64,000 bases of DNA, from the NCBI GenBank assembly GCA_044892525.1, contig CM097885.1:19470001-19534000 (forward strand). The letters are read 5' to 3'. Every line of letters begins with the position of its first letter. The first letter of the stretch is position 1. The translations under genes and the position numbers were made by a program. The notes below the pieces were generated by a model. It saw only the letters and a program-made list of their open reading frames with translations. It was not told where the DNA came from and did no database searches. Shown here one piece after another: positions 2,513 through 42,771 of the stretch. The stretch comes from Schmidtea polychroa. Lineage: Eukaryota.

Positions 2513-2879
2513 TTCTGATATTATTAGTATGTATAGTGGTAGCCAATCTGGTGGTGAATTACCATATTTTATTGGTAAACAGTACGGATCAGGATGGTTG
2601 AGAACAATTGGCAGATTTGCCCTGCCTATTCTTAAACGTATTGGTAGTTTTGGTATGAAAACTGCAAAAGATGTTATTATGAATGAACAGAAAATATTAC
2701 CATCTCTAAAAACAAATGCTTTAGCAGAATTAGGGAAAGTTTTACCCGGGGTTGCAGGTATGTTTCAAAAAGAAAAACCTCCAGCTCCAGCTCCAGTTCA
2801 TGCTCCAAAACGTAAAAGACATGGAATATCACGTATAAACAAACGAATGAAAGGACATGGAACTATATTTGCAAAATGA
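2505..2879 (+). CDS. pVI-like amphipathic/basic virion protein
   Basis: QSGG, QYGSG and MKGHG adenain-type sites, amphipathic WLRTIGRFALPILKRIG, basic C-terminus. Lies between penton and hexon. Confidence 0.7.
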   Translation: MANSDIISMYSGSQSGGELPYFIGKQYGSGWLRTIGRFALPILKRIGSFGMKTAKDVIMNEQKILPSLKTNALAELGKVLPGVAGMFQKEKPPAPAPVHAPKRKRHGISRINKRMKGHGTIFAK

Positions 2880-4093
2880 TTATTGGTAAATCTGAATTAT
2901 GTATATTTGATAGACCGTTGCCCCAGGCTGTAATAGAATTTGGGGCATTTGAGGAAGTTTTTCCTATGAATTCAATTACCGATAGTAGAAATGATATCGA
3001 GTTTTATATTAATGGTTCGCAAACCGAATATTTAGATTTGAACGATACTTTATTGACTGTTCAGATTAAGGTTGTAGATAAAGATAGAAAAGTTTTGGAT
3101 GCCAATGCAGATGTAATACCGAACAATTTCCTGTTTCATACTGTTTTTAAAGATGCAGTGTTGGGATTTAATAATATCAAGGTTGAGGGCGGAAATAATA
3201 CATTCATTCACAAGGCATTAATAGAAACTATTTTAAATTACAATTCTGATACTAAAATACATGTCTTACTCCTATGGGCTATGGCAGTGATGATGAAAGA
3301 AAAAAGTGGGTAAAAGGCTCAAAGGTTTTCACCATGTGCTCATCATTACAACTTGATTTTATGGATCAACCGAAATATTTACTACCGGGAGTTAATGTAC
3401 ATATTAGACTGAAAAGGTCTGATTCTGCATTATCTCTTACTAGTGCAACTACTACACCAATATGTCAATTAGTTGATGCAAAATTATTGGTGAGAAGAGT
3501 TCGAGTAGACCCCTCAGTATTAGCAGGTCATTAATTGGGTCTTAATTTAAAACATGCAATTTATCCATTAAAAACAAAGGAAATTGTACAATTTGCTATT
3601 GCTAAAGGTGCTTCATCATTCTATAAAGAACAAATATTTGGTGACAGAAGAATGCCTAATTTTATTCTGATAACATTTCAAAGTGAAGCACAATATAATG
3701 GATCATATACTGCGTCCAGCTCAATTTTCAAAAACTTTAATGTTACTTCATTGACTTTGTCGAAAAATACTGATTATAGAGAAACATATTCAAGATTTCG
3801 AGAATGACAATTACTGTGCGACATATATGCAGAGTATTGTTAGAAATCTGGGTTATTTAGATAAAAATTTGAATTGCGGAATAACACTAGAAGATTTTAA
3901 AAGCAAATACCCATTTTTTACATTTGTTTTAGCCCCTGATTTTGATTTAAATCAAAGTCAATTACCTCAAAATGGAAATTTACGACTGGATATAAAGTTT
4001 GCAAAAGCTATTACTGAACCAGTACATGTTATAATATATGCAGTATTTGAAAATGAAGTTCAAATTACTGCAAATAGAACTGTGTTGGTATAA
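2876..4093 (+). pseudogene. Major capsid protein (hexon, double jelly-roll, Polinton PY); two frameshifts and a stop at 3532
   Basis: Four ORF pieces join up: SELCIF, IEFYI..EYLDLNDT, QPKYLLPGV..IRLKR, LLVRRVRV, AIYP, FKNFNV, GNLRLDIKFA..VIIYAVFEN. Confidence 0.92.
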
Positions 4094-4120
4094 ATGTATA
4101 TTGAAACACAAAAAGTTGTC

Positions 4121-4505
4121 ATGGAGTAAGTTGTTTTTTATACTCTGGATTTATTTAAGTAGTTCTGTTCAGGTCAATAAAATCGGAAAACAGATATTGG
4201 GAAATGAATTTGTTGGAGTTTTTCCTCTTGATAAAATTCCATATTTGAGCAATAATCAAGCAATAATCGTCAATACTCAATCGTCTCATCTTTGTGGAGA
4301 ACATTGGATAGCTATATATGTGAAACCTGGTAATATATTCGTGTTCGATCCTATGGGTTTTTATTACCCGGCTTTGTTGATTTCAAAACTACAAACAATG
4401 GGGAAACCTATTGTGTATAATAAAACTATGTTTCAAAATCCCTTGACCCAAACATGTGGTCAACATTGTTTAGCTTGGTTATTGTACAAAAAATTTGATG
4501 TTTAA
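4121..4505 (+). CDS. Adenain-type cysteine protease; 37-nt intron 4126-4162 just after ATG-GA
   Basis: Spliced start MDSVQVNK; FVGVF, IVNT..GEHWIA (His), FDPMG (Asp), Q..TQTCGQHC (Cys). The same intron is present in the second copy. Confidence 0.9.
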
Positions 4506-4605: not shown

Positions 4606-4870
4606 ATTATTTTGAAAAATATTATTATTTTTAATTAATTTTATTATTATTTACATAAATATTATTAATTCTACATAAAGACCACCTTTGCCTGAGGCAT
4701 GCACAGTGCAAGTTAACAAAGGCATGACTAACAAAGGCAGTCACATGTAATTTCTGAGTGATTTACATTACATATATGCATGCGTGTGATTGGTTGAGAG
4801 AGTAAAATATTCAGTGTATATGTGTGTGTGTCTATATTCTCATTGGCTGGGACAGGAAAATATTCATTCT

Positions 4871-4897
4871 CTTTATAAACATTGACAAATCTAAAAT
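4871..4897 (+). promoter_or_regulatory. TATA-box promoter of the intron-rich gene
   Basis: CTTTATAAACATTGACA..TTTGTCACAATT is conserved on the minus strand at ~36830-36867, upstream of the equivalent gene. Reverse CCAAT boxes at ~4789 and ~4843. Confidence 0.6.
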
Positions 4898-4945
4898 TTG
4901 TCACAATTATTTCAAAATTTTAAAAATTCAATTTACCTATCTAAA

Positions 4946-5608
4946 ATGGAAAACAATAATAATCGCGTTTTAAGAAATCTGTTGACGACTGGTAATTTAT
5001 TTTATTATATTTTATTTTATTTTATTCTTTTAGATGTGTTCGACTGGTACAAAGTTACCGAAGACGAATCTATGTTAAATGTCGATAAGATCTTCGGTAA
5101 ATTTCTTATTTTAATTTTTATTAAATTAATTTTTTCATTTCAGAAAATGATAATGAGAATAGCGACGATGATGTCGTTTTTCTTGGGCAAACTGATGCCC
5201 CTAATAATGAAAATGACAAGATCTTTGGTAAATTTATTATATTAATTTTTATTAAATTAATTTTTCATTTTAGAAAATGTTTTAAATAGCGACGACGATG
5301 ATGTCGTTTTTCTTGGGCAAACTGATGCCCCTAATTATGCCCCAGTTTTCAAAGAAAGAAGTAAATTTATTTTATTTTAGTATTTTATTTTTAAAAACTT
5401 TTTAGTGTTTAATGTCGACATTGATGCAGAAATTGATGCGGATAATGCCCTCGCTTCTGTCGAGGAGGACTCAAATATATCAATTGCAGATAATGCCCTC
5501 ACTTCTGTTGAGGAGGTTGCTGAAGACTCAGATTCCGATATGGAATCACAATGTAAGATTTATTTATTTTTATATATATATTTTTTTAAATATATTAAAA
5601 TTTCGTAA
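4946..5608 (+). CDS. Multi-exon acidic protein with SIM-like motifs (exons 4946-4991, 5034-5096, 5144-5227, 5274-5360, 5406-5552+); 3' end uncertain
   Basis: Four 42-47 nt GT..AG introns, all phase 1, give one open frame: MENNNNRVLRNLLTTDVFDWYKVTEDESMLNVDKIFENDNENSDDDVVFLGQTDAP..SDDDDVVFLGQTDAP..DSDSDMESQ. Confidence 0.75.
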
Positions 5609-5659
5609 TCACTTTTTAAAATATTTTGATACAAATTTTCTTAAATATTTTGATAAAAT

Positions 5660-6060
5660 TATGATGAAACTTATGACGAAAATTTATGAAGAAAATTTAT
5701 GACGAAAATTTATGAAGAAAATGATGATGAAAATGATTTATGCCCAAAATTATGATGAAAATGATTTATGCCCAAAATTATGAAGAAAATGATTTATGAT
5801 TTATGATGAAAATGATTTATGCCCAAAATTATGATGATGAAAATGATTTATGAAGAAAATGATGATGAAAATGATTTATGATAAAAATGATTTATGCCCA
5901 AAATTATGGTGAAAATGATTTATGATTTATGACCAAAATTATGATGAAAATGATTTATGATGAAATTATGACGAAAATTTATGAAGAAAATGATTTATGA
6001 TGAAAATGATTATATGAAGTAAATACTACGTTTTTGAAATATAATGAAATTATTATGAAA
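5660..6060. repeat. Polinton subterminal minisatellite (ATGATTTATGCCCAAAATT / ATGAAAATGATTT units)
   Basis: Short tandem units visible directly. Confidence 0.85.
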
Positions 6061-6266
6061 ATATTTAAAAAAGTGATTACAAAATTATAGTTATAAAATA
6101 AATCCTTGTAGTTTGCAATGTGCATCTACAATAGTTAAAATGAGCTATCGATTATTAATTTTCGTTGACGGGAACTTTGAAAAAATTAAAAATAAAATAA
6201 TAATATTTTTTAAAAATAATAATAAAAATAATAATATTTTTTAAAAATAATAATAAAAATAATAAT

Positions 6267-6642
6267 ATGACCTTGATGACTCATCGCGATGACTCTTATG
6301 ACCTTGGGAATGACCTTGGATGAGCCATAGGATGACTCAGATGACCTTGAAAAATTTTGATGAGTCATAGTATGAGTCATTTGACCTTGAGAATGACCTT
6401 GATGAGTCATGGCCTTTGTTTAAATGACCTTGACAATTTTTATGACTCATTGGATGAGTCATATGACCTTGAAAATGACCTTGATGAGTCATAGTGTGAG
6501 TCATATGACCTTGAGAATGACCTTGATGAGTCATGGTCTTTGTTTAAATGACCCTGAGAAATTTTATGCATCATCGGATGAGTCGTGGTATTTGTTTCAA
6601 TGACCTTGATGAGTCATATGTCTTTGTTTAAAATTTGACCTC
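6267..6642. repeat. Polinton TIR/subterminal array of TGACCTTG and TGA(G/C)TCA motifs
   Basis: About a dozen copies of each motif, often as ATGACCTTGATGAGTCAT. Confidence 0.85.
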
Positions 6643-7299
6643 GAAAAAATTTTTATAAAAAAAATTTTACGACCGGGGGGGGGGTACTGTGCTAGCGGTG
6701 CCCTGTGCCAGCGGTGCCCAATCCATCTACTACAATGGTCTCAGAAGAATGTCTAAATCGAAAAAACAGTTAAGGACATATCAATTATTATGTAAACTTT
6801 GATGCGCTTTGTGAGATACTTAAAAATAAAATATTTAAAGATTCTTAAAAATTAATTTTAATAAAAGAAATTATGACAATTATGACAATAGACAATATGA
6901 TACTGAAAAAAGGCGAAGTTAAGAAAGTTAATGAGAGACCCAATAGGCGTATGGCTTCTTCAAAGCATATTGCAAGAAGAGTTTACAACAAAGCGAAAGG
7001 ATCACCGGAACCAGAATTGCACCTCTTACAACTCGGTCAATGTTACTGTTGTGGTGAATCAGTGTTGTTTAATATGTGGTAAAATGATCATTTTATAATA
7101 ACTGCCCTCTATTAAGAAGTAATAATACAAGGAGAATTCACTGGATTCAAGAAGAAAATAATTGTAAGGTGTTGGGACTCAACAACACTCGACGGAATTT
7201 TCGCAAATGGAAATACTATTTGGAAGAAAGGTTAATATGCATGGAATGAATTCATTCATAGATTTTAATCGAGATAAAGTATTATTGGCATATCACAAA

Positions 7300-8510: not shown

Positions 8511-10889
8511 CAGGGTTTCTTAACCTGTGGTTCATGCACCCTTGGGGGGTCCATGGATCATATTTTGGGGGTTCGCCGACTGCTCCTAATTTTTAAAATT
8601 TCTTAAAAAAAAATTTTTTTTGTCAAAATTTGAAAATTTGAAACACTGAGTAGCCTTAGATTTTTATTTCACTTGCGTTAGAATCAGTTCCGCAAAGTTC
8701 TTGCAAATTCTTAAAGCGAAATATTTGTTCGTAAAGTATTGTATTTACTAGTATTTTTTTTTCGAGTGCTTTTTTTGTATCATAGTTTTTTCTAGTGTTT
8801 TTTTGTGTTATCAACGGTGTTTTCAAGTAAAGGTGAGTTCAGTCAAGTAATTCATTTGTGAACAATTTCAATTTGAATTCTTAATAATTTATTGATATTT
8901 TTTCCTAATAATTTCTTGATATTTAATTCTTGATATTTTTTGTAGCCCAAAATGTCCAAAAAAAGGAAGTACGATGAAAGTTACGTTAAATATGGATTCT
9001 GTTGCATGAAGGAATCGGACGATGTTGAAAAGCCACAATGCTTTCTATGGGGAAAAATTTTGGCAAACGCCAGTATGAAACCGGCAAAATTGATAGAGCA
9101 TCTCAAATCTCTTCATCCTGAAAATGCATCTAAAGATCTAGAATTTTTTACAAAGAAGAAAGCCCAGTTTTCGAAATCTGGAACATTAACCAAAATTGGA
9201 TTTGGTATTCCACAAAAATCTTTGGTTGAAGCATCTTTCAGAGTTGCATATCGTATTTCCAAAAGTAAGAAACCGCAAACTATTGGAGAGACATTAATTA
9301 AGCCATGTGCGCTAGAAATGGTTGAATTAGTTTGTGGACTGGAACAGAGAAAAGAACTTGAGGCTATTCCATTATCCAATGATGTGATAAAGTCAAGAAT
9401 AGTTGAAATTTCTTGTAGTATTTTGAAACAGATCATCAATGAATTGAAAGCATCGCCTGTTTTTGTTCGTTACATGTCAGCTGATACTATCAAAGAAGAA
9501 TTCTTATTTTGTGAGCCTCTTTTGCAAACTACAAAAACAGTTGATGTTTTAGCGATTTTGAATGTTTTCTTTTCCAAACACGATTTCGAGTGGAAACAAA
9601 AACTTCATTCGCTTTGTACCGATGGAGCACCTGCAATGCTTGGCAATAAATCTGGTTTTGCACATTTGGTAAACAAAGAAGCTCCTAATGTTATTATTAC
9701 GCATTGTTTTTTACATAGACATGCGATGGCTACAAAAACTCTTCCAACCAGCTTAAAAGATGTATTGTCAATAGTTATTAAAACCGTGAATTTTATTAGA
9801 AGTAGAGCTCTTAATCATCGTCTTTTTAAAACATTGTGTCAAGAAATGAACGCAGAACATGAGGTACTTCTGTACCACACGGAAGTGCGCTGGCTGTCTT
9901 GAGGGCAGGTTTTGAAACGAATTTTCATGTTGAAGACAGAAGTATCACTATTTTTGGAAGAAAAAGATAACTCGCTCTTCGAATATTTCAATAACAAAGA
10001 TTTTATATGTAAATTGGCTTACCTGGCAGACATTTTTAACCACATGAACGATATAAATATTTCAATTCAGGGGCTTGATACAACAATTATGGATGTCACT
10101 GAAAAACTACAAGCATTTTAATCGAAAATGTCCGTTTGGAAAATTAGAATTCAAAATGGGATATATGCAAACTTTCAAATGTTGGACGAATTAATTTTGA
10201 AAATGGATCTCGGCAAGATAATTTGTTATTGAATAACTTGAAGGATGTAATCTGTGAGCACCTGGAAGTACTTCAAGTTTCATTTGAAAAATATTTCAAT
10301 TTGGATGAAATAACTAAACAAGATGAGTTGTGGATTCGTAATCCTTTTCTTTGTGATATTGACTGTATCGATGACATAAACCTTGCCAACGACGAGTTAA
10401 TTGATTTGAAAACAAATTCCTTGTTAAAAATGGATTTCGATTTGGTCTTCTTTAAGAGAAGCCTACCCATTGCTAATAAAACGAGCTATGGCAGCCATTT
10501 TACCATTTGCTACGGTATATCTTTGTGAATCAGGATTTTCCACACTCGTAACAATAAAAACAAATCATCGAAATCGACTGAATGTCCAACATGATATGCG
10601 CGTTGCGTTGTCGAAAACCATCCCTCAATTCAATCTCTTAACCAAGGAAAAGCAGCAACAGCCTTCACATTGAAAATTTTATTTTCTTCAATTACATTTA
10701 TTATTTTATATCCAGGAACATAAAGATATCTGTCAACAGTTATATTATTGAAATAAAAATATTTAAATAATAAAATAGAATATATTTTGTAATAAATGAC
10801 GTTTAAACAAATTTTTTTTACAGAGGGTTCCGTGACATATTTAAAATTTTTAAAGGGGTCCATTGCACGAAAAAGGTTAAGAAACCCTG
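8511..10889 (+). mobile_element. hAT DNA transposon, Buster/Charlie type
   Basis: Perfect 16-bp TIR CAGGGTTTCTTAACCT / AGGTTAAGAAACCCTG; 8-bp TSD ttataaat / atataaat (7/8 match). Confidence 0.95.
8952..10673 (+). pseudogene. hAT (TcBuster/ZBED5-like) transposase, disrupted
   Basis: BED-like N-terminus, CTDGAPAM, HCFLHR, EVRWLS*G, LAYLADIF, FATVYLCESGFS, QQQPSH. The segment with the first catalytic Asp is deleted (KASP|VFVRY); stops and a frameshift follow. Confidence 0.93.
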
Positions 10890-35057: not shown

Positions 35058-35935
35058 ATAGCAAGGTTTAGATGACAATTTTTCTTCTCAAATTTCGATC
35101 AGTTATAGGGTCATAATTAATCTCATTCAAGAAACCGGTATACTTACTCACTCTATTCCAATGATTTCTAATCTGATCATGTTTTAATACAGCAAGTACA
35201 CTATATATAAAAAGCACATATTGTCTGTATTCTTAATGTTCACTATTGCAGTTTTATTATACAACGATGTTGGTGTTGGTATATATAAATGGCCGGATAA
35301 GCGATTAATTGGATAATATTTTGTCAAGATAAACACAATTTCTTTAATTTTATTTATTCGCCACCCACTACCGAGATATGTAAATTTATCTATTTTCTCG
35401 TTTGATTTTTGTGACCCTTTAATAATAAAATCATCCGAGAAAACAAGTGCTGTATTTGAAAAATAGTTGTCCCTAATTTCTCCATCTTTTTCAAATTGTA
35501 TAAAAACTGTAAATTGTATTTTTTCAGACCCGATCTTGCTTATTTCTAATGCTAGATGAACCCTAATTTTATCCGTTAAAGATATTTGAATCAATTGATG
35601 TTTAGAAACATCAAATCGTAGATTTTTTCGAGCACTTTGAAACTCGATAGTTATAATAGGATCATCATCTACATGTAAAGACCCTCCTACTTGATTAATA
35701 GGAATACGAGGGGAATCAGCAACACCTGCTTCATTGTCACTTTTTTAATAATTTTAGTTGAGACAACTTCATTTTTATTTTTTACAGACCTTTTATTGTT
35801 ATTATTATTAATTATGTTAAAGAATTGCCTATTAAAGATTTCTCTAAACATTTCCTTCCTATTTGATGAAAACTGATTTATTAAATGTATTCACTGTAAA
35901 ACTCTTTAAAAGTAGAATGGTTAATAGTCTTGCAT
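35058..35935 (-). pseudogene. pPolB A, N-terminal part (continues at 14047); 5' limit approximate
   Basis: KIQF..GSGWRINKI..YIPTP..AIVNIKNTDNMCFLY, the Polinton pPolB N-terminal motifs. Confidence 0.88.
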
Positions 35936-36213
35936 TTATGATATAAAATATTCGATTCTGTTGAATCTACGACCGTAATATGATGTCATTAGAGCATGGC
36001 ATTTGGAGTTATGCTCGATTCCAGATACGCCGTATCGAGGATATAAAAAACCCGATAAATATAAAATAAACAAGTCGTAGTTATATATTATTATTAATAT
36101 TTTGTGGCAAAATTTATATCTTGAATTTATATTTCATTTTATTAAATATATACTTGACAACAAATGCCAAAATTATCATTTAATTGTTTAATATTATTAT
36201 CGTTATCATTATT

Positions 36214-36364
<151 letters not shown>

Positions 36365-36437
36365 CATCATCATTATTATAAAAATTATTAATATTATTAC
36401 TACTATTATTAACATATAAAATAAAAATAGAAAAAAA

Positions 36438-36813
36438 TCAACATTTTTCATGGACATCTTTGGCTTCCATAATTATTTCATCGGAGACATAATTTATTTC
36501 TTCATTAATTACATCTAAAAAATGCAGTTTTAAAAAATATATAAAATTAAAATAATTTACCATTTTCAAAAATTCTGGAAATATCCAGGAGATATTCATT
36601 TTCTGTGATCTCGAACGAATCTCCGATAAAAAAATCTAAAATAATATTAATAAAATTAATTGAAAAAATAAAATTTACCATTTCCTTCATGTTCATTCGA
36701 ATTTCCACGAAATTGTAGAGAATTAGCTTGACTAGTTTCTAAATAATAAAGTAAATATCTATATAAAATTAAAATTTAAAATTACCACCGACAACTTTTG
36801 AATTATTAGCCAT
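36438..36813 (-). CDS. Multi-exon acidic protein (exons 36813-36786, 36738-36679, 36635-36561, 36514-36438), positional equivalent of 4946-5608
   Basis: Three phase-1 introns of 47, 43 and 46 nt give MANNSKVVGETSQANSLQFRGNSNEHEGNDFFIGDSFEITENEYLLDISRIFENDVINEEINYVSDEIIMEAKDVHEKC*. Same promoter motif as the first copy. Confidence 0.7.
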
Positions 36814-38415: not shown

Positions 38416-38960
38416 ATGGATCACGTTTTGGTCATGTCTGTCTGTCACTTGAAACTTTGTTTACAATTCATCTGTTTCAATTCATTAGATATTACAACTA
38501 CAAATGGACCATCAAATTACAGGTTTGTTGTCATTTGCAAATATTCCATTTAATAGTTTTTAAATTTAGGAGTATTGAAGAGAAAAATACAGATGCCGCT
38601 CAGGAATTCGGAAAACGGAAATTTAAAGAATCGACATTATCCCTGGAAACCTTGCTCAATGTTCGAGTGGATACAAAAAAGCCAATAGAATTCTTGCAAT
38701 ACAAACTAAATTATTTGTATTGTCCAATTTCTTATATATTTAAGGTAAGTTTGTTTAAATTATTTTGGATTTTATTATTTATTTATTGTTAGGAACCAGC
38801 AACTTTAGAAAAATGTTTCTACAATGTTCGATTTTCCAAAATCAAGTTCAATGATAACATGATATTGGGACAATTATTTCAGAGAATGAACGAAAATATT
38901 GAATTCAATGAAGAAGATTTGTTTATTAAATGCGATTTGGATATGATTCTCAACTCCTAA
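38416..38960 (+). CDS. Spliced hypothetical Polinton gene (exons 38416-38522, 38570-38744, 38793-38960), ~149 aa
   Basis: GT..AG introns of 47 and 48 nt keep one frame: ..GPSNYR|SIEEKNTDAAQEFGKRKF..YCPISYIFK|EPATLEKCFYNVRF..DMILNS*. Confidence 0.55.
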
Positions 38961-39325
38961 CCCAGTCAATAGTTTCAATAAATTCTTTAGTTTTTCACAT
39001 CTGGCATCATTCTCCTTTGCTTTATTAGCTAGTCTAATCATGATAATTCATCCACCATGATCATCGACCCATGGCATAATTTTTGATTCAGTAATCTAAA
39101 TAATGTTGATGTCAATTTGATCAATCAAAATAATACCTCTACAGACCTTTGAAAATAATTTTCAAAGTCTAAGCCCGATTTTTCCAAAAAATGTTTCATA
39201 CACATGAAAGCTATAATAATTCGAGACCATGTAATTTCATCATCGAATAATGTATAAAATATTTCCTCGAATAATTTTTTCACATCGGGAGTGTGACTTA
39301 AATGGTTCTCGTGTTGAATTGACAA
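38950..39325 (-). pseudogene. Bcl-2-family homolog (BH1 and BH2), 41-nt intron 39096-39136, stop in BH2; both ends uncertain
   Basis: LFEEIFYTLFDDEITWSRIIIAF (BH1: LFxDxxxWxRI), then after splicing ITESKIMPWVDDHGG* (BH2: WIxxxGGW with TGG>TGA at 39048-39050). Confidence 0.8.
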
Positions 39326-39339
39326 GCGATGTATCTGCG

Positions 39340-42300
39340 ATTAATTCTCCTGACATTGTTGTTCCAGATTGTCTCATTAAAGAAATAGAAGATCATATTC
39401 AACGAATGGGGACAGTAAAAATACAATTTGGACTTTGTGCAGAGTTTATCAACGAGGATGGTGAAATTAAAAAATGGTGTTTGTCGAATAAAGCAATTAC
39501 AATGTCATCTTCATTTATTAATGATGGAATTGAAAAAATTAAAAGAAAAGTTGGAGAAATACACTCAACAAAGTAGTGGGTGGAGAATTCATAAAATATT
39601 AGAAGTTACTATGATTTTAACTAAATTATCAGACATAATACATGTATCTGGTACGTTTTAAACATTATTATATATAAATCAAGTTATTTACTTAGGTTCA
39701 AGTTACGTTAAAACGCCAAATTACCTGAAAAACTGTAATTTACTGTTAATGTTCAAAACAATGATCAATTCTGTTTTTTATATAGCATACTAGCCGTGTT
39801 ACGTTATGATGATATACGCCGGGATAGAGAAAGAACAACAAAATATAACTTAAGTGGTAATATATATATATTAATAAATGTCATAAATCATTGAATTTTG
39901 TTTTTAAGATTTAAAATGGAAATTTGAATGGTTTCCCATGAAGTTGGTTAACATTTGCCAATTTGAAGCAATGAATCCAAATCTAGCGATCAATGTTCTC
40001 AAATATAATAAAGATCCAATTAAACAAAAAACTAATGATATTTTCAAGAATCCGTTCGTTGACTTGGTATATAGAAGTACTTCGACGGGATCTCAGATAT
40101 ATCTCCTATTGATTGAAGAAGGTAATATTTTCTTTAATCATTAAAAATATTAACTAAACTTTAGAATTAAATTATCATTTTTTGGCTGTAACCAATCTCG
40201 ATCGACTGCTGAATTACAGAGATAGAGTAGAAGGAGTCAGAATCCAATCACAATGGTGTCATACATGTCTTCATGGGTTTCGAAAACGTCCTGCTTTTGA
40301 AAGACATATAGGTCTTTGTAGGAAGAATGTGGAGCGGACGACTCTATACTCAATGCCAGAGAATAAATATATCGAATTTAAAGACTGGAGTAAAACTATA
40401 AAACAACAGTTTGTTGTCTACGCGGACTTTGAATCGATATTACCTCTAGATGACAAGCACTTCCAAAAACATGAGCCGATTGCATCTGAATTTGTGCTTC
40501 TTCATCAAGGTTGTCCGATCCGAAATGAAACATTTGTTGGGAAAAACTGTATCATTCAGTTTATACAAGCATTGGATGATATAGCTACAGACATAGTTTA
40601 TCCGTGGTATAAAACTAATGGATCAAAGGAAATGATGGAACTCACCTGGGAACAACAGGAAGAATTCACGACTCAAACTCATTGCTACCTTTGTAAAAAG
40701 ATTATTAATATACCTATTCGAGATCATGATCATTTTACTGGTCAATATCTCGGAGCAGCATGTCAAGATTGCAACTTGGCTAGAAGAATCAATCCGTCTT
40801 TACCTGTTGTATTTCATAATCTTCGTGGATATGACATTCATCATATATTAAAATATGCAATTGGAAAATTCCACGATTGGAATTTAATTGTTATTCCTCA
40901 ATCAACAGAAAAGTTTCTCACACTTACAGCGACATCGAAAGGCAGAAGAATTAGATTCATTGATTCTTTACAATTTTTAAATAGCAGCTTGGCAAATTTA
41001 TCAAAAAACTTGCCACGTCTTCCACTGACCTCAGATGTTTTCGAATCGCAGATGATGACTTGTAAAACCATTTTTCTTTATGATATGGCTACGTCAATGG
41101 ATGTTTTACAGTCAATAACAGAATTACCAACGATTTGGGAAGGAGTTAGTCAAGAAGATTATATACATGCAAATCAAATCTGGCGACAATACAACTGTGA
41201 GACACTGCTAGATTACATGCTCGTATATCTCAAGTTGGATGTTTTTCTACTAGCAGATATTGTTGAGGCTTTCAGAGAAAAAAACATTTGACGAAGATGG
41301 ACTTGAGGCTCTGTTGTTTGTTTCCATACCTGGATTAAGTTGGGCATCAGCAATTAAACAATTAGCTGAACCGATAGAACTTATTCAAGATCCAGAGCTT
41401 TACCGTTTATTTGAAGCTGGTATTCGCGGTGGAATGACATTTATCAACAAACATCATGTTGAAGCTGATGAATCCACACAAATGTCATACCTAGATGTTA
41501 ATAATTTATATGGATGGGCAGTGTCGCAAAAACCTCCTATTAGTGAATTTAGATGGTTAGAAGATCAGACTGAAATGGATAGTATTATTAAAAGATGTAT
41601 GAATGGAGATGAGTTTGATGGAGATCGTGGATATGTTTTGGAGGTTGATATCGTCATTCCAGATAGTATACAGGATAAACTAGAAGATTTACCTATAGCT
41701 CCTGAGCTTTTTTATCCGCCTGGAAGTAAAGTTGAAAAGTTGTTATTAACACACGAACCAAAGACCAATTATGTTATTAATAGTAGAATTTTGACTGAAT
41801 GGTTGAGTTATGGCGCAAAAGTCACAAAAGTTAATCGTGCTGTAGAATTCAAGCAAGTAGCTATTTTCAAAGGCTATATTGATTACAATACTCAAATGAG
41901 AGCAGCTAGTACAGATTCATTTCAGCGAGATTATTATAAGTTAAAGAACAACAGTTTATACGATAAAACCGTGGAAAACCTTAAGAAACGTATAAATTTG
42001 AGATTATGCAGCAAAAGAAAAAGATTGATAACTTATTGTAGTAATCCTACGTTTCGTCGTAGCATCAAGATTGCGGATGATCTCATTGCTGTTATACTTG
42101 ATAAGGAAATGGTGTGTTTAGATAGACCAATGTACATTGGACAAACCGTACTTGATTTATCTAAACTTCGCATGTACCAGTTTCAATATAAAGAACTACA
42201 GAGTTACAGAGAAGAATTTAATTGTCAAATTAATATCGTAGTCGGTGACACAGATTTCTTCTTTTTAGAGTGTAAAAATGTTGATTTACGCTTACAACTG

Positions 42301-42771
42301 TATCCAAAAATGATTGCCGATGAGCTTCTAGATACTTCAAATTATCCAGTCGCTGATCCATTGTTCTCAGATAAAATTTGTTCGGTAATCTGGAAATTCA
42401 AGGTTTTGAATAAAGGAAATCAATATAAAGAATGGGTGTTTCTTCGACCCAAGTGCTACTAACTCCAAGGCGATAAAAAACACTCTAAAACCCAAAGGAA
42501 TAAGACTTACAAATTCTAATCTTACACATGAAGCCTATAAAAAAGTGTATACTAATGTGGAACAGTGAGCATCCCACAAAAAAGAATAGGAAGTGTCAAT
42601 CATCAGTTGTATACTTTCATGACAGAAAAACGAGCTCTCCAATGTTTGGACGATAAAAGGTATTGGTACCATTGTAATGAAAGTTATGCCTACGGTCACT
42701 ATATGATTCGTCAAATGCATATTGCAACTGCTATGTCTAGAAATGAATGCAAATCGAAACAAGCACTTTAA
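39340..42771 (+). pseudogene. Protein-primed family B DNA polymerase B; three introns (39651-39695, 39857-39908, 40122-40164); frameshifts and stops
   Basis: SGWRI, NVQNNDQFCFLYSILA, VYADFES, RDHDHFTGQYLGAACQDCN, FHNLRGYD, FIDSLQFL, YLDVNNLYG, KLKNNSLYDK, GDTDF, LRPKCY, DDKR..AYGHY. Confidence 0.95.

Follow-up and report, generated by a model that had tools for sequence, protein, structure and literature searches.

The DNA of Schmidtea polychroa analysed here (the window, 64,000 nucleotides on the forward strand) contains a series of short exons between positions 4871 and 5608, which code twice for an acidic run followed by VVFL, a motif that resembles a SUMO-interacting motif (SIM). The question was whether these exons form a gene of their own. 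A sequence-only reading had proposed a fast-evolving accessory or anti-silencing gene built by exon duplication. The comparison with other copies points with high confidence to a different answer: the exons would be the leader of a pPolB gene, orphaned in this copy by deletion of the gene body, and complete copies would splice this acidic, likely SUMO-binding leader onto a polymerase polyprotein.

In the window, the leader starts with the ATG at 4946 on the plus strand and consists of five exons of 46, 63, 84, 87 and 147 nt, separated by four introns of 42, 47, 46 and 45 nt. Every one of these introns has GT-AG ends and is in phase 1. The features of the leader are the following.

4789-4879, plus strand: likely pPolB promoter, with ATTGG at 4789-4793 and 4842-4846 (two reverse CCAAT-like boxes) and TATAAA at 4874-4879
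4946-4991, plus strand: leader exon 1, with the ATG; MENNNNRVLRNLLTT
5034-5096, plus strand: leader exon 2, VFDWYKVTEDESMLNVDKIF; the best conserved exon, with a length of 63 nt in all 30 intact copies and a pN/pS of 0.12
5084-5345, plus strand: tandem duplication, two 131-bp units, each with the end of exon 2, an intron and the motif exon
5144-5227, plus strand: leader exon 3, with the SIM-like SDDDVVFLG (codons 5164-5186); a chimeric exon, its last codons being duplicated from the exon 2 end
5274-5360, plus strand: leader exon 4, with the second SIM-like motif SDDDDVVFLG (codons 5294-5316)
5406-5552, plus strand: leader exon 5, acidic, with internal repeats; 147-336 nt and in frame in all intact copies

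The claim of at least five exons with symmetric phase-1 introns was borne out, as the chain is open in most sister copies. The same is true for the claimed tandem duplication of exons 3 and 4, each coding for SDDD(D)VVFLG: positions 5084-5209 and 5215-5339 are 88% identical at a spacing of 131 bp. Because the duplicated unit begins 13 nt inside exon 2, exon 3 ends in DKIF like exon 2. Exon 5 had no match in Pfam. The TATA region ahead of the leader recurs in the other element copies examined, and the region 4789-4879 likely functions as a promoter.

The conservation of the chain was followed in two samples from the same genome. A similarity search gave 1397 candidates, of which 40 were scored (the window and 39 sister loci), and for the second sample the motif codons were matched exactly (871 matches) and the first 20 loci on contig C1 were taken. 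The open chain with all introns in phase 1 was kept in 30 of the 40 similarity-picked copies, window included, and in 16 of the 20 position-picked copies. In the 30 intact copies the exon lengths differed by multiples of 3 only (exon 1, 43-52 nt; exon 3, 69-84 nt; exon 5 in the range given above), and the introns were free to vary between 34 and 50 nt. The leader chain is conserved beyond chance.

When the distinct variants were compared pairwise, exon 2 had a pN/pS of 0.12; the value was 0.38 in the motif block of 15 codons and 0.19 in its VVF[LI] core. In the 62 motif exons the second Val was encoded by all four codons and the residue was never altered, position 4 of the core toggled between Leu and Ile, and the core substitutions were almost all between hydrophobic residues. 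Since the copies are related, the counts are not independent events and the pN/pS values describe the family. As judged from these values, the leader is under purifying selection. The term 'fast-evolving' is appropriate for the exon 5 repeats and the number of motifs; exon 2 and the motif itself (0.19-0.38) do not fit it.

The number of motif exons per element was 1, 2 or 3, so the exon copy number across elements, which had been suggested as a check, is variable. The duplication breakpoints differ, giving a chimeric exon in the window type, a whole exon in the L088 type, a duplication within the exon in L096 and L101, and a triple exon in L045 and L055. One duplicate motif of L096 and L101 has decayed to ENEDVIFIG, with the hydrophobic core after acidic residues still kept.

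The sequence following exon 5 was then compared in the sister loci. Downstream of the exon 5 donor, pPolB sequence in sense orientation was observed in 36 of the 39 loci: in 29 it was present from its first (Zn/Cys-His) exon, in 4 the body was found without that exon, and in 3 there were distant matches only; the last 3 loci had none. In the position-picked sample, the Zn exon lay downstream of the leader in 20 of 20 loci. The frame of L059 encodes a family B polymerase (Pfam DNA_pol_B_2, PF03175, E 7.4e-31), and DNA_pol_B_2 was matched in frames of L036, L059 and L068. Whole-frame scans missed this domain in 7 of 8 frames or pieces, and of the trimmed frames two matched and two did not. The terminal-protein and OTU domains were not matched by Pfam in the polymerase frames; both were assigned by eye from motifs and the published order. 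A PDB sequence search with the polymerase core was without match.

The fifth intron spans 876-1617 nt in the sister loci. Its acceptor was located in 25 of the 39, and in 24 of these it read AG/GT or AG/GC with a Cys junction codon; the Cys-yielding acceptor occurs in two different sequence contexts. Exon 5 ends with a phase-1 T; in complete copies this base opens the codon for the first cysteine of the Zn-type domain. By this comparison, the five exons belong to the pPolB gene as its 5' coding leader. The proposed separate accessory gene was not supported, since the exon 5 donor leads into the pPolB body in 29 of the 39 sister loci and in all 20 position-picked loci. What remains of a gene built by exon duplication is a spliced multi-copy coding region that is partly built in this way, but is not a gene of its own.

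The reason for the unusual appearance of the window copy was found in the structure of the element. It comprises 12,304 bp with matching ends, and its left end lies 5.6 kb upstream of the window. The relevant features are listed here.

4038-4505, plus strand: adenain-type cysteine protease gene (Pfam Peptidase_C5, E 5.5e-05, over the cut-off), directly upstream of the leader
5553-6141, plus strand: 5' remnant of the fifth intron, acceptor lost
6135-6141, no strand: deletion junction, 7-bp microhomology TTAAAAT, where intron 5 is joined to the right terminal repeat
6135-6731, no strand: right terminal inverted repeat, matching the left end of the element
6732-6737, no strand: target-site duplication of 6 bp, ACAATG, identical at the left end

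Compared with six sisters, 6.2-7.4 kb including the pPolB body is missing, and a tblastn search with pPolB against the 12.3-kb element gave no match in this copy. Sister copies carry TTAAAAT at both corresponding places, and among the 40 scored matches the deletion junction was spanned by the window copy alone. Most simply, a one-off deletion at the 7-bp microhomology removed the polymerase body. The five exons look like a stand-alone gene here because of this loss.

A micro-exon accessory gene that stands alone would end at the stop at 5606-5608, perhaps by polyadenylation inside intron 5. Such a gene would agree with the missing polymerase in this copy and with a 51-bp block of intron 5 that contains AATAAA and recurs with up to 2 mismatches in 29 of the 39 similarity-picked sisters, but the block was that close in only 5 of the 20 position-picked loci. 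Nor is the stop conserved. Reading through the exon 5 donor gave 44 different tails of 1-75 amino acids among 59 copies, with an immediate stop in 4, and 13 of the 59 tails end in KIS, one of these at another place. The tails vary in sequence and length, so the gene does not end at 5608; this is a read-through stop inside the fifth intron, whose GT donor lies at 5553. The donor, in contrast, is conserved in 59 of 59 copies (GTAAG in 55, GTTAG in 4), its acceptor yields a conserved Cys, and the junction without polymerase is unique among the 40 scored copies. A stand-alone gene is therefore very improbable. A first count suggested that this stop keeps the frame in many copies (20 of 37), which the count of the actual read-through tails did not confirm.

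The other genes of the element were also inspected. Of 29 loci tested, 27 carry the protease upstream of the leader. The ORF at 650-1495 gave a weak integrase match (rve_3, E 0.0057; Chromo, E 0.00026; each under the curated cut-off), and an (ATT)n run lies inside this frame at 773-880 of the window. The region 2876-4093 is split over four frames and was without Pfam match; by its position it is a putative capsid gene. In L031, an ORF at 9115-9780 is Walker-A-like by eye and resembles a packaging ATPase. Like Polintons, the elements have terminal repeats, a 6-bp target duplication, a putative, weakly matched integrase, an adenain-type protease, packaging-ATPase-like and capsid-like ORFs and, in the sisters, a PF03175 polymerase with motifs resembling terminal-protein and OTU domains. 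The element family is Polinton/Maverick and the window copy is a defective member.

The Cys/His exon that follows the long intron was used for a profile search, which gave 48 distant proteins. In P0012, P0013, P0015, P0038 and P0010 the protein starts with M-x-C at the junction cysteine, and several of the distant relatives run on into terminal-protein-like and polymerase sequence. In its spacing, C-x6-C-x5-H-x3-C ... C-x2-C-x14-H-x2-H, the domain bears little resemblance to a RING; it likely binds Zn and precedes the terminal protein. Its structure model is of low confidence (pLDDT 57) and a PDB fold search was without match. No matches were obtained with this exon in a word-indexed search, and the scores of an Atlas search were all under 0.9. 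A likeness of exon 2 to the start of P0002, seen by eye, was dropped, as its score was -1.5 and many shuffles scored higher.

Two further observations were made with the distant relatives. The Cys/His domain is present in 2-3 tandem copies in P0007, P0018, P0019, P0034, P0035, P0037 and P0046, some with classical C2H2-like fingers ahead. P0021, P0026, P0028, P0030, P0033, P0040, P0043, P0044, P0047 and P0053 end or turn hydrophobic directly after the domain, with runs of the G-K/N/T-x-F type. Such ends resemble the read-through of a phase-1 intron, and polymerase introns may be more widely spread.

The motif was compared with the SIM-r consensus [DSE]3-[ILVM]-x-[ILVMF]2, as given in the available text of PMC3631770. 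It fits in 61 of the 62 motif exons, and the likeness of the acidic run plus VVFL to a SUMO-interacting motif, seen in the sequence-only reading, was supported for this published class. By chance, one SIM-r match arises in 8.6% of the shuffles of this acidic leader. The two window motifs share a single origin, and exon 2, the best conserved exon, has no SIM match. The single-exon subfamilies code for PI[IT]ISDDDDVVF[IM]G, in which SIM-a and SIM-r stand back to back (shuffle P 0.012).

SIM-like peptides were also found in the linker ahead of a QxGG site. The duplicated-exon subfamilies have VIVISKD, VIVIND or IVISDD ahead of QIGG. At the single-exon loci with a QxGG site, the linker motif was absent in 7 of 8, and L093 has both. 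In a second Polinton family (family B), EIIIISDDE stands ahead of QVGG in the single readable locus, L076, and no DDDVVF exon was seen in the 14 loci inspected. In the 48 distant relatives, a linker pattern fixed beforehand was found in 2, with 0.04 expected (4 of 2000 shuffles), and in P0012 it lies directly before QIGG. The strict published SIM patterns gave 3 matches against 1.1 expected, which is not significant (47 of 500 shuffles reach 3), and a broader SIM pattern gave 4 against 1.4 (30 of 500 shuffles). A triplet motif gave 6 against 0.8, but was chosen after the fact and is not counted as evidence.

The turnover of the motifs is a stronger argument for the SIM reading than the fit of a single match. 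On balance, we slightly favour that the leader motif binds SUMO. A host SUMO gene was not found in the same genome with the Pfam family and three patterns; six loci and one top match were ubiquitin-like or unclear. This genome contains at least 150 ubiquitin-like matches, many in long open frames, and an array of ubiquitin-like units at L116.

The leader could also be real without DDDVVF[LI]G binding SUMO, the motif being part of an acidic activation-type region or a dock for another host or element protein. The SIM consensus is loose, according to the accessible part of PMC12751080, and the chance rate of a single match, the lack of a clear enrichment of the strict patterns in the relatives and the absence of a SIM match in the best conserved exon all fit such a role. 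It accounts less well for both published SIM orientations around one acidic run, for core substitutions that are almost all among hydrophobic residues, and for the recurrence of similar motifs ahead of QxGG, seen in three types of linker and in two of the distant relatives. We regard this as a serious possibility, though somewhat short of an even chance. The exon duplications themselves might be neutral slippage in a tolerant disordered spacer, where frame and acidity alone matter. In every subfamily exon 5 has indeed grown through unrelated repeats, the duplication of a symmetric phase-1 exon carries no cost, and the duplicate in L096 and L101 has decayed. Against neutrality, the motif block is under purifying selection across both duplicates, the duplication recurred with different breakpoints, and even the decayed copy keeps its hydrophobic core after acidic residues. 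Neutral slippage is rather unlikely.

For the preferred reading, a SIM-bearing leader of pPolB, the following pathway is proposed. Transcription would start from the TATA region and splicing would join the leader to the polymerase body, with the long-intron junction creating the first Cys of the Cys/His domain. The predicted polyprotein would consist of the acidic leader with 1-3 SIM-like motifs, the Cys/His domain, a low-complexity linker with 0-2 further SIM-like motifs, QxGG, the terminal protein, the OTU-like protease and the exonuclease-polymerase. The SIM-like motifs might bring the precursor to nuclear sites rich in SUMO, or have their effect once released. A protease of the element, for which the adenain-type enzyme at 4038-4505 is the candidate, would cleave at QxGG and so release the front part. 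Besides this site, QxGG or QxGxG is found in two further ORFs of the element and in 7 of the 48 relatives, many of which are fragments, and therefore the element protease may cut there. The adenovirus pre-terminal protein, which is cut by the viral protease, serves as the model for this cleavage. The window copy would make a short dead-end product at most. Clustered SIMs bind poly-SUMO better than single SIMs, as stated in the available portion of PMC3631770. More speculatively, the detachable front module, with its SIMs and the new Cys/His domain, could be freed at QxGG as a SUMO decoy or anti-silencing factor, and mini-exon duplication could tune the SUMO avidity via host splicing; we hold this to be doubtful.

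For Polinton/Maverick elements (eupolintovirus, 'Alpha' adintovirus), the pPolB order TP-vOTU-EXO-PALM is described in the accessible text of bioRxiv 10.1101/2024.03.18.585575 and PMC8502044. Unlike the pPolB described in the former, a spliced acidic leader, a Cys/His domain and QxGG precede the terminal protein here, and the words 'intron' and 'zinc' occur 0 times in its available text. No such leader was found in the available parts of PMC8502044, bioRxiv 10.1101/2023.08.22.554363 and PMC12220804, nor did one appear among the papers, largely from outside the subscription literature, that were listed for Polintons with introns, SUMO or SIMs. According to the available text of PMC8097293, intact vertebrate Mavericks have no introns; in contrast to these, a core Polinton gene is likely dependent on host splicing here. 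Viral SIM proteins include ICP0, K-bZIP, LANA and BGLF4, and the host SUMO-targeted ligases of the RNF4 type are multi-SIM proteins (PMC3631770, PMC12751080, accessible portions). Like multi-SIM proteins, the leader has hydrophobic cores in a cluster, with acidic residues and serines on their flanks, beside a Cys/His domain. Unlike in RNF4-type ligases, no RING pattern was found in this domain, and the predicted motifs sit on a polymerase precursor.

New here are the turnover of the SIM-like motifs and the orphaning of the leader. The true start of these polymerases escapes ORF-based annotation, which can take the leader for a separate gene, as happened in the window. If the motifs bind SUMO, they provide a testable link of Polinton replication to the SUMO system that hosts use in silencing, and natural variants with 1, 2 and 3 motifs coexist in one genome. 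In the adenovirus E2B unit, a small upstream exon, joined across a long intron, supplies the protein start of the polymerase and of the pre-terminal protein, the latter being trimmed by the viral protease. That upstream exon gives only a few residues, whereas 4-6 exons here give more than 100 acidic residues with repeated motifs, and the terminal protein and the polymerase are in one frame.

Splicing of the leader was looked for in two sequencing runs, X1 and X2, which are only guessed to be RNA and were available as contigs, one per joint; unspliced intron sequence was also present. In X2 (depth 12.8), one contig skips 5095-5147 (53 nt), a stretch that would comprise intron 2 and the 6-nt repeat with which exon 3 begins in this copy. 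The 27 letters beyond the joint were placed at 5148, with a T-to-A difference at 5151. Given the 6-nt repeat, this joint is as expected of a copy with exon 2 ending in TG spliced to exon 3. In X1, one contig returns from 5201 to 5144, the joint that splicing of exon 3 to exon 4 would produce. Neither joint was seen in the DNA-like run X3, and X7 barely covered the stretch. The long-intron junction was in no contig on the window, whose element copy is unable to show it. The contigs give weak backing to the splicing of the leader.

Further observations concern the element family. The proteases are mostly 95-100% identical across copies (L001-L030) and the polymerase N-termini only about 50% (Cys/His exon of L036 and L059), a divergence that suggests an exchange of polymerase modules. 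The 51-bp block in the long intron, at 6091-6141, contains an imperfect palindrome, TTGTAG...CTACAA. The terminal motif of the element, CCATCTACT, also occurs internally, just before the ATG in L002, L003, L005, L006, L009 and L012 and in the long intron of several loci; these copies are possibly binding sites for an element protein. L033 (C3:138519000-138528999) holds two partial element copies in inverted arrangement with the leaders facing outward. The second Polinton family is present in the window at 35086-36800 on the minus strand and in L074-L087. Its polymerase leader has an exon, DWFEITENEDLLDISRIF, that by eye is similar to leader exon 2; one exon occurs in only some of the copies, and downstream lies the same Cys/His exon. 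A third polymerase at 38500-42705 of the window, on the plus strand, has apparent short GT-AG introns, seen by eye, both towards its 5' end and close to where the terminal-protein and OTU parts meet.
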